A DNA stretch of 32,000 nt, taken from the NCBI GenBank assembly GCA_963739415.1, contig CAVUAJ010000001.1, forward strand, positions 247,420 through 279,419, in the 5' to 3' direction. Positions 11,353-24,528 of the stretch are shown piece after piece (the first letter of the stretch is position 1; each line of letters opens with the position of its first letter). Made by a program: the position numbers and the translations under genes. This DNA comes from an uncultured Methanobacteriaceae archaeon (lineage in GTDB: Archaea; Methanobacteriota; Methanobacteria; Methanobacteriales; Methanobacteriaceae). The notes beneath the pieces are model-generated. The model saw nothing but the letters and a program-made list of their open reading frames with translations, ran no database searches and was not told the DNA's origin.

Positions 11353-11354
11353 TC

Positions 11355-11445
11355 TTATAACTTTTAATTTATAAGTTAGAAGTTATAAGTTATAATTATT
11401 ATGTTATAAGTTAAATGTTAAAAGTTATGAATTATAAGTTATAAG
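11355..11445. repeat. array A1: 13 contiguous in-phase heptads, consensus TTATAAG
   Basis: The heptads start at 11355 and recur every 7 bp. In order: TTATAAC, TTTTAAT, TTATAAG, TTAGAAG, TTATAAG, TTATAAT, TATTATG, TTATAAG, TTAAATG, TTAAAAG, TTATGAA, TTATAAG, TTATAAG. The array begins 3 bp after the stop codon of the ModE-like gene. Confidence 0.9.
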
Positions 11446-11504
11446 CAATTAAGTTTATTCAGAGCTTTAATTTCAAAAATTTAAAAATTATAAAAAATCA
11501 TTTA

Positions 11505-11532
11505 TTATAACTTAAAAGTTATAAGTTATAAG
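11505..11532. repeat. array A2: 4 contiguous heptads (TTATAAC TTAAAAG TTATAAG TTATAAG) abutting the ferredoxin RBS
   Basis: Read directly from the sequence. The last heptad overlaps the AAGGAG RBS, 16 nt before ATG 11548. The 15-mer TTATAAGTTATAAGG (11519-11533) recurs exactly at 18824-18838. Confidence 0.9.
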
Positions 11533-11547
11533 GAGTAATTTTTTTAC

Positions 11548-11775
11548 ATGAGAATTGAAGTTGATAAAGAAAAATGTACTGGCTGTGGAATATGTAAAGA
11601 AGCCTGCCCTAAAGGACCTAAAATATGGAAAATCAAGGACAAGGCTGAAGCCACCGACTTAAGATACTGCCATGTATGTACTATATGTGCCTCAAAATGT
11701 CCCCAAGGTGCCATAAAAGTTATAAGAGATGATAAAAATGAATCGGAAGAAACAGTTGCAACGGAAAACGAATGA
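11548..11775 (+). CDS. 2x[4Fe-4S] ferredoxin
   Basis: Two motifs, [12 protein letters not shown] and [12 protein letters not shown]. 75 aa with an acidic tail. AAGGAG RBS. Confidence 0.85.
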
Positions 11776-17651: not shown

Positions 17652-18776
17652 ATGAATAAAACGAAGAAGCTGGAAATTCTAGCTGAAAGTGCTAGATATG
17701 ACCGCTGCAATCACATAAATTCAAATGTAGAAAGTTTTTTGAGAGGAAAACTACCCGGAGTATATAATGCTAGCACCGCCAATGGTTGTAAAGTACCTTT
17801 ATTAAAGGTTTTGATGACTAATAAATGCTCAAATGATTGTCGATATTGTATTAATCATAATAAGCATCAGTTTAATAGGGTGGAATTTTCACCAGAAGAG
17901 CTTACTTCCCTTTTTTTAGATTATTATCAAAATAGGTATGTAGAAGGATTATTTTTAAGTTCAGGAATCCCTAATGATGCTGAAAATTCCATGGAAAACA
18001 TGGTGGAAGTTCTCCAAAAACTCCGTTTGGAATATGGGTATAAGGGTTATATACATCTCAAAATTCTTCCAGGTACTTCTTATGATCTAATTAAAAGAGC
18101 TATGAGTCTAGCTGATAGAGTGAGTGTAAATATAGAAGCAGCTACTCCAGAAGGTCTAAGTGATCTTAGTAGTACAAAAAAATATGATACAGATATTATA
18201 AGACGTATTAATTGGATTAAAAAACTGAGGAAGAGGGATGAAAATCTGGCACCCTCTGGTCAAACCACCCAATTCATTGTAGGTGCCACCGATGAAACAG
18301 ACTTACAGATTCTAGATCGAGTTAATTGGTTATATAAGAAAATGGATATCAAAAGAAGTTATTTTAGTACTTTTGAGCCCATGAAACATACATCTTTAGA
18401 ATTTCGTGAAGGGCCTTCTCCTAAAAGAAGTCCTAGACTATATCAAGCTGATTTTTTACTTAACTCTTATGGCTTTAGTTTGGATGAATTGGTTTTTAAT
18501 GAAGAAGATAATCTAAAATTAGATGTTGATCCTAAATATTACTCAGCATTATCTCATAAAGAGCTTTTTCCTGTTGAAATTAATGAAGCTCATTATCAAG
18601 AACTTCTACGGGTACCAGGAATAGGTAAAGTATCTGCTGCAAGAATTGTACGTGATAGAAAGTTGGGTACTTGTTTTGAAAAATTAGAAGATCTTAAAAA
18701 TATTGGCGTTGTAACTAGTAGAGCTGAACCCTTTATTAAATTGAATAAAAAGTACCAAAGCACTCTTGAATTTTAG
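17652..18776 (+). CDS. radical SAM protein of the putative DNA modification/repair type, with a C-terminal helix-hairpin-helix
   Basis: CSNDCRYC (C-x3-C-x2-C). N-terminal [51 protein letters not shown] and [16 protein letters not shown] (HhH) follow the layout I recall for the bacterial family that is normally linked to a UDG-like partner. Confidence 0.7.
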
Positions 18777-18810: not shown

Positions 18811-18922
18811 TAATAAGTATAACTTATAAGTTATAAGGTATGCAGTTATAAGTTTTAAGTTAAAACTTAAATATTATAAGTGATAAGTTAAAACTCATAA
18901 ATGATAAGTTATAAGTTATTAT
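18811..18922. repeat. array B: TTATAAG-type heptad array immediately downstream of the par operon
   Basis: TAATAAG, TATAAC, TTATAAG, TTATAAG (18811-18837). After an 8-bp break there are 11 in-phase heptads at 18846-18922: TTATAAG, TTTTAAG, TTAAAAC, TTAAATA, TTATAAG, TGATAAG, TTAAAAC, TCATAAA, TGATAAG, TTATAAG, TTATTAT. The last heptad overlaps the stop codon of the 141-aa ORF. Confidence 0.9.
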
Positions 18923-19344
18923 AATCCTTTTTCCTCAAAGATCATCCAAATATCAGGGTATCTATTTTTTACTGCTTCTTCAATGAGCGTTGAAGCTTCA
19001 TTACTAATACTAAATTCAGGCTTTGTTTTCTTTAGAAATCTCAAAACTGCTGCGGACTTTGCTGACCATAATGAGATGCGAGGATTTTTATGAACGTCTA
19101 GAAGGACATCATTTATAACTCCCTCATCAAAATTTTCATTTTGAACAGAATTAACTTTATTTTCAACATCCTCTGCTATTTTATTATTCATTTCAGGTTT
19201 TGAAGTTGATTCATCTGTTTCAAGTTTTGTTTTATCCGTTTCTTCTTTAACTTCTTCTTCATCCAAGTAATTACTTCGTATAAGGGCATCTAATCCTTTT
19301 CCTAAAGCACTATCCGGTTTCTTCTTAACGTTTTTAGAGGTCAT
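18919..19344 (-). CDS. 141-aa ParA partner candidate: ParB-like N-terminal peptide, acidic linker, possible RHH DNA-binding C-terminus
   Basis: The N-terminus MTSKNVKKKPDSALGKGLDALIRS matches the conserved ParB/Spo0J N-terminal LG(K/R)GLxAL peptide. Residues ~27-75 are D/E/K/N-rich. The C-terminus PRISLWSAKSAAVLRFLKKTKPEFSISNEASTLIEEAVKNRYP has a strand-helix-helix pattern. Its ATG lies 3 nt after the parA stop, and its GGAGG RBS sits inside the parA 3' end. Confidence 0.6.
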   Translation of the reverse strand: MTSKNVKKKPDSALGKGLDALIRSNYLDEEEVKEETDKTKLETDESTSKPEMNNKIAEDVENKVNSVQNENFDEGVINDVLLDVHKNPRISLWSAKSAAVLRFLKKTKPEFSISNEASTLIEEAVKNRYPDIWMIFEEKGL

Positions 19345-19347
19345 TTA

Positions 19348-20127
19348 TTAACCTCCCAATCTTTCTAGTTTCAAAAGTTCTTCAGCAAGCTTTTGATAAG
19401 CAATTGTACCATTACATTCTTCATCATAAATTATGCAAGGTTTACCATGACTAGGGGCTTCAGCAAGCTTTACGTTACGTGGAATAGTGGTCTTAAATAT
19501 GTTCTCGGTCTCTCCAAAGTATTCCTTTACATTATTGTATACATCCCTTCCCAAACGGGTTCTAGAATCATATAAAGTTAGAAGAATTCCTTTAATTGGT
19601 GAAGGACTGTGTAAACGAGTTTCAACTAGACCCATGGCTCTAATAAGATCAGCCATTCCCTCCAATGCATAGAATTCGGCTTGTATGGGTATTATAACAC
19701 TGTCCGATGCCACTATTGAATTTAAAGTTAATAAGCCTAAAGAAGGAGGCACGTCGATGAAAACATAATCATATTGATCACCAATTCCCTCCATAGACTC
19801 TTTTAATATGGAATGAGGGCCTATAGTTTTGCTTAATTCGATTTCAGCACCGCTTAAGGATATATTACTAGGAACTAATTCTAAATCAGGGATATCTGTA
19901 TTAACGATAGATTCTTGTAGGGTATTTTGTCCCGTTAAAACGGAATATATTGAAATGTTTTGCTCATTTTTTTCTATTCCTAGTCCAGTGGTTGCGTTTC
20001 CCTGAGGATCCATATCTATCAACAAAATTTTTCTGCCTAGAAGGGCTAAAGCAGCTGATAAATTCACTGCAGTGGTGGTTTTACCACACCCGCCCTTTTG
20101 ATTTAGTATTGCAATTATTTCAGCCAT
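19348..20127 (-). CDS. parA: ParA/Soj-type partition ATPase (deviant Walker A)
   Basis: AILNQKGGCGKTTTAVNL (KGGxGKT), LLIDMDPQGNAT, SGAEIEL, YVFIDVPPSLGLLTLN, PIQAEFYALEG, TIPRNVKLAEAPSHGKP. 259 aa with no N-terminal HTH extension. GGAGG at 20139-20143. Confidence 0.9.
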   Translation of the reverse strand: MAEIIAILNQKGGCGKTTTAVNLSAALALLGRKILLIDMDPQGNATTGLGIEKNEQNISIYSVLTGQNTLQESIVNTDIPDLELVPSNISLSGAEIELSKTIGPHSILKESMEGIGDQYDYVFIDVPPSLGLLTLNSIVASDSVIIPIQAEFYALEGMADLIRAMGLVETRLHSPSPIKGILLTLYDSRTRLGRDVYNNVKEYFGETENIFKTTIPRNVKLAEAPSHGKPCIIYDEECNGTIAYQKLAEELLKLERLGG

Positions 20128-20152: not shown

Positions 20153-20187
20153 TGATAAGTTCTAAATTATAAGTTATAAGTTATAAT
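20153..20187. repeat. array C: 5 in-phase heptads (TGATAAG TTCTAAA TTATAAG TTATAAG TTATAAT) in the parA promoter/5' leader region
   Basis: Read directly from the sequence. The array starts 10 bp upstream of the parA RBS. A TATA-like TTTATATTA on the minus strand lies just beyond it (about 20186-20196). Confidence 0.9.
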
Positions 20188-20264
20188 ATAAATATTTGAT
20201 CATGAAAAAAAGAATATTACTCATTTTTTAAATTAATTAATAGCAAAAAATAAGTAAGGAGTTT

Positions 20265-24078: not shown

Positions 24079-24528
24079 ATGACTAATACTAAAGAAATAA
24101 TAGGTTATGTTGCTATCATAATTATTGGAATAATTCTAGCTCAACATTTAAACGTGGTGGTTTCTGGCAGTATGGAACCTGTTTTTTATAGGGGCGACGT
24201 AGTAGTTATAGAAAAAGCCAATTTTTTAGGCATACAAGAATTTAACACCAGCAACGTAAATGTGGGAGATATAGTAGTATATGATGCTACATGGTTCCCT
24301 CAGCCAGTCATTCACCGCGTTATCTTTAAAGGTACAAGTCCTGACGGACAGTTATACTATGTTACAAAGGGGGATAATAACCCAGGACCCGATCCAGTCG
24401 TGGTTTATCCAAACCAAATAGAGGCTAAAGTAGTTGCGCTAGGCAGTACTCCAGGTATGAATCCTATAAAAATACCATATGTAGGATATATTACCATTTG
24501 GATCAGAGGAATACCTGCATCGAGTTAA
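24079..24528 (+). CDS. signal peptidase I, archaeal/Sec11 type (S26B)
   Basis: N-terminal TM helix, SGSMEP catalytic-serine box, HRV box and TKGDNN box. Starts 10 nt after ilvD, with a GGTGG RBS. Confidence 0.85.

Follow-up and report, generated by a model that had tools for sequence, protein, structure and literature searches.

What might a small archaeal protein do that begins like a bacterial ParB, ends unlike one and is encoded directly behind a ParA-type ATPase? The question is raised by a 32,000-nt stretch of DNA (the window, throughout) from an uncultured Methanobacteriaceae archaeon (GCA_963739415.1, contig CAVUAJ010000001.1, positions 247,420-279,419). The window carries mtd, fae-hps, thrS, argS, ilvBCD and the gene of a pseudomurein-binding repeat protein, marking it as a Methanobacteriaceae chromosome segment, and its nearest relatives in a scan of one genome per species are Methanobacterium metagenome-assembled genomes (MAGs). 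On its reverse strand lie a parA gene (19348..20127) and, downstream of it, a 141-aa open reading frame (ORF) with an ATG start (18919..19344). A first-pass annotation, made from the DNA letters, had drawn attention to the motif ALGKGLDALIR at residues 13-23 of this ORF, following the basic stretch KNVKKKP, and the ORF listing and translation reproduced exactly that sequence (motif at 19276..19308). As set out below, we identify the protein by homology as a SegB, and its gene probably specifies the adaptor that binds the centromere in a chromosome partition system of the euryarchaeal SegAB type, in which a ribbon-helix-helix (RHH) adaptor would sit on heptad arrays and activate a Soj-like ParA through a ParB-type peptide.

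The C-terminal half of the protein connects it to SegB. In a phmmer search of all PDB sequences, residues 49-137 matched SegB of Saccharolobus solfataricus (7DUV, E=5.9e-10; 7DV2, E=1.3e-8), and hhalign of 21 Methanobacterium homologs against 14 Sulfolobales SegBs gave 97.7% probability (E=2.3e-12) over 55 columns at 35% identity, with window residues 84-138 in register with residues 47-101 of the S. solfataricus protein. SegB is a crystallised RHH centromere-binding protein; in Sulfolobus, stimulation of the ParA-type ATPase SegA depends on the unstructured residues 1-21 at the SegB N-terminus (PMC8682754). By these alignments the C-terminal 55-65 residues of the window protein are homologous to the crystallised Sulfolobus SegB domain, and the RHH fold that had been suggested for this end is what the homology predicts for residues 84-138 (18931..19095), which include the SegB signature KNPRISLWS. 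The extended window sequence K86-N-P-R-I-S-L-W-S-A-K96 fits the published signature K/R-D/N-P-K/R-I-G/T-V/L-W-S-Y/P-P/E (Charles-Orszag et al., PMC12139799) at 8 of 11 positions, the misfits being S for G/T, A for Y/P and K for P/E. K52 and W56, which contact bases in S. solfataricus SegB, correspond to R89 and W93, an Arg at the first of these positions in euryarchaea having been remarked on by the authors of the SegB structure paper, and S77 and P72 are retained as S114 and P109.

The remainder of the protein is not ParB-like, in line with the first-pass annotation. No ParB/Srx CTPase (ParBc), helix-turn-helix (HTH) or other ParB model of Pfam or NCBIfam matched even at E<=1, and none of the Pfam RHH, ParG or omega models matched the 141-aa protein at E<=1; sub-threshold hits to Swm2, COMMD1_N and ribosomal S15 in the same scans were set aside as noise. 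A truncated ParB is ruled out, as the C-terminal half is unrelated to ParB. An AlphaFold2 (AF2) monomer model from the 21-sequence alignment, with a mean predicted local distance difference test (pLDDT) score of 64, placed helices at residues 95-103, 115-128 and 130-138, as expected, and gave pLDDT <50 for residues 30-66. This is consistent with the disordered linker that had been proposed, a variable, charged segment (residues 24-73, 19126..19275) that is hypervariable in both length and sequence in the alignment. Since euryarchaeal segAB cassettes, including those of Methanobacteriales, were catalogued earlier (PMC5120986, PMC12284271, PMC12139799), the family is known, and the suggestion that it was undescribed does not hold: by sequence, the window protein is a SegB orthologue and a member of the known euryarchaeal SegB clade. 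The chimeric architecture seen in the first-pass annotation survives as the combination of peptide, linker and RHH core with a Soj-like partner, though as a trait of this widespread clade rather than as a one-off fusion.

The N-terminal motif and the RHH core are both strongly conserved. In the 21-homolog alignment A13-R23 is invariant apart from a K/R exchange at position 16, and most of residues 84-125 are likewise invariant, co-conservation of the two ends being what the first-pass annotation had proposed to check. The motif is essentially unchanged across the 120 listed homologs. With 615 homologs in total and strict synteny, a spurious ORF is ruled out, and the gene is, judged by this conservation, real and under selection. 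A profile search of 1.84 billion representatives yielded 255 SegB-like clusters at E<=1e-3, of which the best 150 were inspected for the motif. In 71 of these 150, [LIVM]G[KR]G[LIVMF]xx[LIVMF][LIVMF] starts at residues 3-13 after a K/R-rich stretch, and because it recurs at this place in such diverse representatives, the motif is no chance match. Its central residue is Lys in 37 and Arg in 34 of the 71, and Lys has been reported at about 50% for that position of ParB. Named members of the family include Methanobrevibacter, Methanothrix and Archaeoglobaceae.

The motif can also be set residue by residue against ParB. L14, K16, L18, L21 and I22 stand in exact register with L11, R13, L15, L18 and I19 of Myxococcus xanthus ParB, residues that have been functionally mapped and are essential. 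A 20-position profile built from 43 SegB-like N-termini only, searched against 177,635 distinct PDB sequences, had as its top match Thermus thermophilus Spo0J residues 1-18 (MSRKPSGLGRGLEALLPK, E=0.0064), with Helicobacter pylori ParB residues 1-17 second (E=0.18) and Caulobacter crescentus ParB residues 1-18 sixth (E=0.36). By register and profile, the N-terminus corresponds to the canonical ParA-binding motif of ParB, as had been recognised by eye. Single-sequence searches were less informative: phmmer of residues 1-31 against the PDB gave no matches, the query being too short for such a search, and tblastn of the peptide against PLSDB plasmids gave one meaningless match (E=10). All Sulfolobales SegBs start MSELD(F/L)(L/I)(L/F), followed by a Lys/Arg run, and in the MAFFT alignment this N-terminus falls on LDALI, the second half of the motif, with no counterpart of LG[K/R]G. 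We found no mention of a ParB-type motif in SegB in the literature searched, where a targeted search for LGRGL/LGKGL gave generic ParAB papers only; the sole remark on this region, in one preprint, is that the N-terminus is less conserved in Euryarchaeota (PMC12139799).

Variants of the N-terminus and core were also noted. In P0126, P0128, P0129 and P0131 the central K/R is replaced by Leu or Met (GLGLGLDALIK, GLGMGLDALIK) after a long basic/serine stretch. A 322-aa protein of a Methanothrix MAG (P0319/P0132; locus L089, 3001-3969) joins two RHH domains in tandem within a single chain, RRNPRIGIYSP... and KNPKLTVWSP..., and has a degenerate N-terminal motif (KKALGDKAEDLFS); the repeats upstream of parA in that locus belong to another family, with TTAAG/AGTTAA cores. 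This protein may be a single-chain pseudo-dimer variant; a single-sequence AF2 model of P0132 as an intramolecular pseudo-dimer had a pLDDT of 43.6 and was unusable.

A ParB-type peptide would call for a partner able to receive it. The adjoining ATPase (259 aa; AAA_31, E=3.5e-64), SegA orthologue by position, scored 199-230 bits against the bacterial ParA/Soj structures 8RAY, 6IUB/8JMJ and 1WCV, compared with 71 bits against S. solfataricus SegA (7DUT). In a joint alignment it was 46-47% identical to ParA/Soj of M. xanthus, H. pylori and T. thermophilus, 32% identical to SegA and 48% identical to the ParA beside an Archaeoglobaceae SegB. The deviant Walker A KGGCGKT (residues 11-17) and the catalytic D40 are present. 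The ParB peptide binds M. xanthus ParA in a hydrophobic pocket of V116, L150, L152, L155, L187 and L192, and all six positions are kept in the window protein, as I96, L130, L132, L135, L167 and L172; the invariant residues of the Arg13 site, Y81 and E117, are kept as Y61 and E97. Three of the four lysines that bind DNA non-specifically in the H. pylori protein are matched by basic residues (R194, R217, K220). S. solfataricus SegA has gaps at L187 and over the Y81 region, and carries Asn in place of E117 and Thr in place of L152. Residue by residue, these comparisons identify the partner as a Soj-type ParA in which the mapped ParB-peptide pocket and non-specific DNA-binding residues are conserved. 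Since the peptide is full and the pocket intact here, with a half-motif in Sulfolobales SegB and an eroded pocket in S. solfataricus SegA, the states of peptide and pocket co-vary in the few sequences compared.

The pairing of the two genes is strict. With the pattern [KR]NPRI[ST]LWS, the one-genome-per-species scan matched 219 stretches, 210 of which encode a relative, and the best 80 are all from Methanobacteriaceae. Linkage to parA, another point of the first-pass annotation, was found throughout: parA lies directly upstream on the same strand in 81 of the 81 loci having upstream DNA. The order ilvD-thrS-parA-segB-rSAM-cobB is kept across Methanobacteriaceae species, rSAM being a radical SAM gene. 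The spacing of 3 nt in the window, where segB follows in the same frame, is replaced in most relatives (loci L001-L084) by a 4-nt overlap (ATGA) of parA and segB. As a separate observation, window positions 19345-19350 hold the parA stop codon and one further codon between the genes, such that readthrough of this single stop codon would yield a ParA-SegB fusion.

Some relatives stand out by name or surroundings. Several small SegB homologs (P0317/P0318, WP_209583637.1 and WP_346735635.1; P0009, P0049, P0127) are named 'AAA family ATPase' in RefSeq/GenBank and have no ATPase domain, which looks like a misannotation propagated from the adjoining parA. An Archaeoglobaceae MAG (L088, 962-7225) has its parA-segB cassette between orc1/cdc6 genes on both sides and next to a PIN/RHH toxin-antitoxin pair, an arrangement that suggests a position close to a replication origin or within an integrated element. 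Two distant SegB-like proteins (P0223 and P0189, from L090 and L091) have LGKG(I/L) N-termini and lie downstream of parA in contexts resembling mobile genetic elements (MGEs), with phage integrase, GmrSD, UvrD/Cas4-like and HicB neighbours; their linkers contain odd serine-rich repeats such as SKSEV/SNLEV.

A centromere-binding adaptor would also need a site, and a candidate is provided by a repeat around the operon. The heptad ATAAGTT/AACTTAT occurs 26 times in the window (12.2 +/- 3.7 expected), and the 13-mer TATAAGTTATAAG, with <=2 mismatches, occurs 39 times (3.8 expected), clustered at three places only. Four contiguous heptads, AACTTAT, AACTTAT, AATTTAG and AACTTAT on the operon strand (20155..20182, reverse strand), lie 28-55 nt upstream of the parA ATG as a candidate operator/centromere, directly preceded by an A/T-rich, TATA-box-like element (AAATATTTATATTAT, 20183..20197, reverse strand) with a presumed promoter role; both are conserved in the footprint described below. 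About eight direct and inverted AACTTAT/ATAAGTT cores lie between segB and the radical SAM gene, whose stops converge (18816..18922), where no promoter is expected and where the repeat density marks a candidate centromere-like site. The third array, found in the repeat scan (11354..11532, also 11714-11726), is 7.4 kb from segB, between the gene of a ModE-like TOBE regulator and a small operon of a 2x[4Fe-4S] ferredoxin and hisB. It is present at the same position in the relatives L085 and L086, the TOBE gene being present in L086 and absent beside the array in L085, and may be a secondary SegB site or a co-regulated promoter.

The first two arrays are a general property of the cassette. Over 80 loci the hexamer core reached a density of 15.8/kb within 200 bp upstream of parA and of 19.1/kb within 160 bp downstream of segB, compared with 1.1/kb elsewhere, and the counts were 244 upstream (33.5 +/- 5.6 in dinucleotide shuffles) and 240 downstream (36.2 +/- 5.1), an excess of ~7-fold over the shuffles and ~15-fold over the rest of the loci. 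The density outside the arrays is at chance level, which rules out the heptads as a general feature of promoters or AT-rich DNA. When 54 upstream regions were aligned, the footprint AAAATATATATATTATAACTTATAACTTATAATTTAGAACTTATAA stood out, with 80-99% column identity against 20-50% in the flanks, corresponding to four to five contiguous 7-bp units between the TATA-like box and the ribosome-binding site (RBS). The same core (ATAACTTATAACTG...TTTTAAGTTAACAGTTAT) also directly precedes parA in an Archaeoglobaceae MAG, the SegB of which shows 43% identity. By position and alignment, the AACTTAT arrays flank the operon and are phylogenetically conserved.

Together, these features suggest how the system might work. 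SegB dimers would insert their paired beta-strands, with R89 and W93, into the major groove of the 7-bp heptads. By covering all three arrays (upstream of parA, downstream of segB and ~7 kb away), they would build up a partition complex. The flexible linker would let both N-terminal peptides of a dimer dock in the hydrophobic pockets where the subunits of a nucleoid-bound ParA-ATP dimer meet, with L14, L18, L21 and I22 contacting I96, L130, L132, L135, L167 and L172, and K16 contacting the Y61/E97 site. Docking, with K16 as trigger, would lead to ATP hydrolysis and ParA release, such that the complex would track a ParA gradient as in bacterial ParABS. The requirement for the SegB N-terminus in SegA stimulation in Sulfolobus is a precedent for an activating tail. 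Because the upstream heptads lie between the TATA-like box and the start codon, autorepression of the operon by SegB is also probable. Next to such a system, the SegAB of Sulfolobales looks derived: its SegA is without the region that contains the Tyr for Arg/Lys binding, and of the motif its SegB retains the LDxLL half only, with a lysine run after it.

Several observations weigh against the adaptor reading, beyond the fact that its functional part is drawn from sequence throughout. Two acidic residues of the M. xanthus Arg site described as 'functionally conserved', E82 and D110, are both replaced by Ser in the window ParA, and conservation does not extend to several H. pylori contact residues (R53, K56). 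Of the residues with which S. solfataricus SegB contacts the DNA backbone or bases, K75, R78 and K81 are replaced by S112, N115 and S118, and a different DNA specificity is therefore to be expected. The beta-strand of the RHH was not formed in the AF2 monomer model, as expected of an obligate dimer, and Foldseek of this model against the PDB gave no match better than E=2.9. The PDB profile search had modest E-values (0.006-0.36), its remaining three matches were internal segments of one unrelated lumazine-synthase family with similar scores, and a motif of only ~9 residues could have arisen by convergence. Finally, the assignment of the heptads to SegB is drawn from position and conservation, so another factor could bind them, and the Sulfolobus SegB site, TCTAGA-S-TCTAGA, is unlike AACTTAT.

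The brevity of the motif and its unspecific company in the profile search would fit a likeness to ParB that is convergent or coincidental, with the tail contacting ParA in another way, for instance by a ParG-like arginine finger at another site, or having a different function. The ParF/ParG binding mode does differ, and in Sulfolobales SegA is activated by a SegB that has no LG[KR]G half. Nevertheless, we think such a coincidence unlikely, given that five of the five functionally mapped positions match in register, that the N-terminal placement at residues 3-13 and the K/R ratio are as in ParB, and that the partner keeps all six pocket hydrophobics along with both invariant Arg-site residues, with SegA, the partner of the half-motif SegB, eroded at just these places. 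Somewhat more weight, though still well on the improbable side, attaches to the idea that the arrays belong to another factor or are structural or promoter DNA, the true SegB sites lying elsewhere, for example as a degenerate TCTAGA-type palindrome. One array does adjoin the ModE-like regulator gene in the window and in L086, but that gene is missing beside the array in L085, and the arrays hug both operon ends in 80 loci and recur upstream of parA in Archaeoglobaceae. The different motif bound in Sulfolobus speaks for the idea. Against it, the base-contact residue K75 is among those replaced, so that a changed specificity is to be expected, and segS of Sulfolobus acidocaldarius is likewise a triple 7-bp repeat just upstream of segA. 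Tandem heptads are, moreover, a classic type of RHH site, as for the omega protein.

If SegB does bind the heptads, it might do so mainly to repress the parA operon together with a few further promoters, the repeats being operators only, with no centromere or adaptor role. Many RHH proteins act as repressors, the upstream heptads sit between the TATA-like box and the RBS, and the third array is upstream of the ferredoxin-hisB operon. A pure repressor, however, would need neither an invariant ParB-type ParA-binding peptide nor strict linkage to parA, the array of highest density sits where two genes converge and there is no promoter for it to control, and the characterised SegB is a segregation protein. 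Type Ib systems combine autoregulation with centromere function, and we regard repression as the sole function as quite unlikely. Least probable, and in our view very improbable, is a domesticated plasmid or MGE partition module no longer active in chromosome segregation. The integrases and defence genes around distant family members point that way, but the synteny from ilvD to cobB is chromosomal and conserved across Methanobacteriaceae species, and the strong conservation of protein motifs and cis-sites indicates purifying selection on a working system. The adaptor reading thus remains the one we favor.

The ParB-type peptide on SegB, the Soj-type partner with the matching pocket and the candidate heptad centromere appear to be new, none of the three having been found in the literature searched. 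SegB has been described as archaea-specific and without sequence identity to bacterial proteins, and the residue or residues of its N-terminal tail that activate SegA were explicitly stated to be unidentified (PMC8682754). K16 and L14/L18/L21/I22 provide a directly mutable candidate for the activating element, as a ParB-type motif found in most of the family, and the Sulfolobus N-terminus MSELDFLL becomes explicable as a half-motif. In a published search of a euryarchaeon, the Sulfolobus motif had no match close to segAB; the AACTTAT arrays would be the first concrete centromere candidate for euryarchaeal SegAB. The occurrence of the same peptide on two unrelated DNA-binding folds in two domains of life bears on the evolution of ParA-activating peptides, and the findings bear as well on the direction of SegB transfer between archaeal phyla. 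We tentatively propose, while rating it below an even chance, that the ParA-binding peptide is a portable module shared by bacterial HTH/CTPase ParB and archaeal RHH SegB, that the euryarchaeal SegAB (Soj-type ATPase, full LG(K/R)GLDALI, heptad centromeres) represents the ancestral or majority form, and that the Sulfolobales form is derived, peptide and pocket having eroded together. If this were true, the SegB transfer from Sulfolobaceae to Methanobacteriales that has been proposed in the literature would have to be reversed. The idea also predicts interchangeability across domains, with the Methanobacterium SegB peptide activating bacterial Soj, and the reverse.

Among neighboring genes, the radical SAM gene that converges with segB (17652-18776, forward strand) encodes a protein with an additional helix-hairpin-helix that matches TIGR03916 ('putative DNA modification/repair radical SAM protein', E=7e-106), and it is syntenic with the parA-segB cassette across Methanobacterium species. 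A 149-aa ORF without a Pfam match (24079-24528, forward strand) keeps its position between ilvD and argS in L085 (145 aa) and L086 (141 aa). A sigma-70 promoter and intrinsic-terminator scan was uninformative, as expected in an archaeon.

Compared with known systems, the closest relatives are the Sulfolobales SegBs (S. solfataricus SSO0035, PDB 7DUV and 7DV2; S. acidocaldarius), which have a homologous RHH core with the signature KDPKIGVWS where the window protein has KNPRISLWS. Shared as well are a gene directly downstream of a ParA-type gene, an unstructured N-terminal tail (which stimulates the ATPase there), a variable charged linker and sites beside the operon (candidate sites here). In contrast, the Sulfolobales proteins start MSELDFLLKKKRK, with only the LDxLL half and no LG[K/R]G; their SegA, ~40 aa shorter than the window ParA, has neither the Tyr/Glu Arg-site nor the complete pocket; and their site is TCTAGA-S-TCTAGA rather than the candidate AACTTAT heptads, with K75/R78/K81 being S/N/S here. 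HpaAB of Haloferax volcanii (bioRxiv 10.1101/2025.11.19.689047) is likewise an archaeal two-gene operon, pairing a ParA said to be bacterial in origin with a small disordered RHH protein of ~150 aa, HpaB, whose N-terminal ~12 residues are needed for ParA-dependent positioning. By its description it differs in that HpaB has no sequence similarity to known centromere-binding proteins, that contact is predicted on each HpaA monomer and not in a dimer-interface cleft, and that no ParB-type motif is reported.

The type Ib proteins ParG (TP228) and omega (pSM19035) offer a more distant parallel, as small RHH dimers with a flexible N-terminal tail that activates a Walker-type ParA, a role predicted for the tail here. 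Their sites are arrays of short repeats that double as operators, serving both autoregulation and centromere function, and those of omega are 7-bp heptads. The likeness is architectural and functional only, with no detectable sequence similarity to the window protein; ParG uses another peptide (R19) and another site on ParF, and both are plasmid systems with small ParA/ParF-type ATPases, whereas the window holds a chromosomal cassette with a Soj-type ATPase. Bacterial ParB/Spo0J (T. thermophilus 1VZ0, H. pylori 4UMK/8JMK, M. xanthus) shares with the window protein the (K/R-rich)-LG(K/R)GLxxL(I/L)P element at the extreme N-terminus, the five critical positions, ~50:50 K/R usage and a Soj-type partner with the same pocket. 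The rest is unrelated, the window protein having no ParB/Srx CTPase domain, HTH, CTP-gated clamp or C-terminal dimerisation domain, and DNA would be read by an RHH beta-sheet, unlike in ParB/Spo0J. The juxtaposition of two peptides, achieved in ParB by CTP-dependent clamp closure, would in the window SegB be provided by a constitutive RHH dimer.

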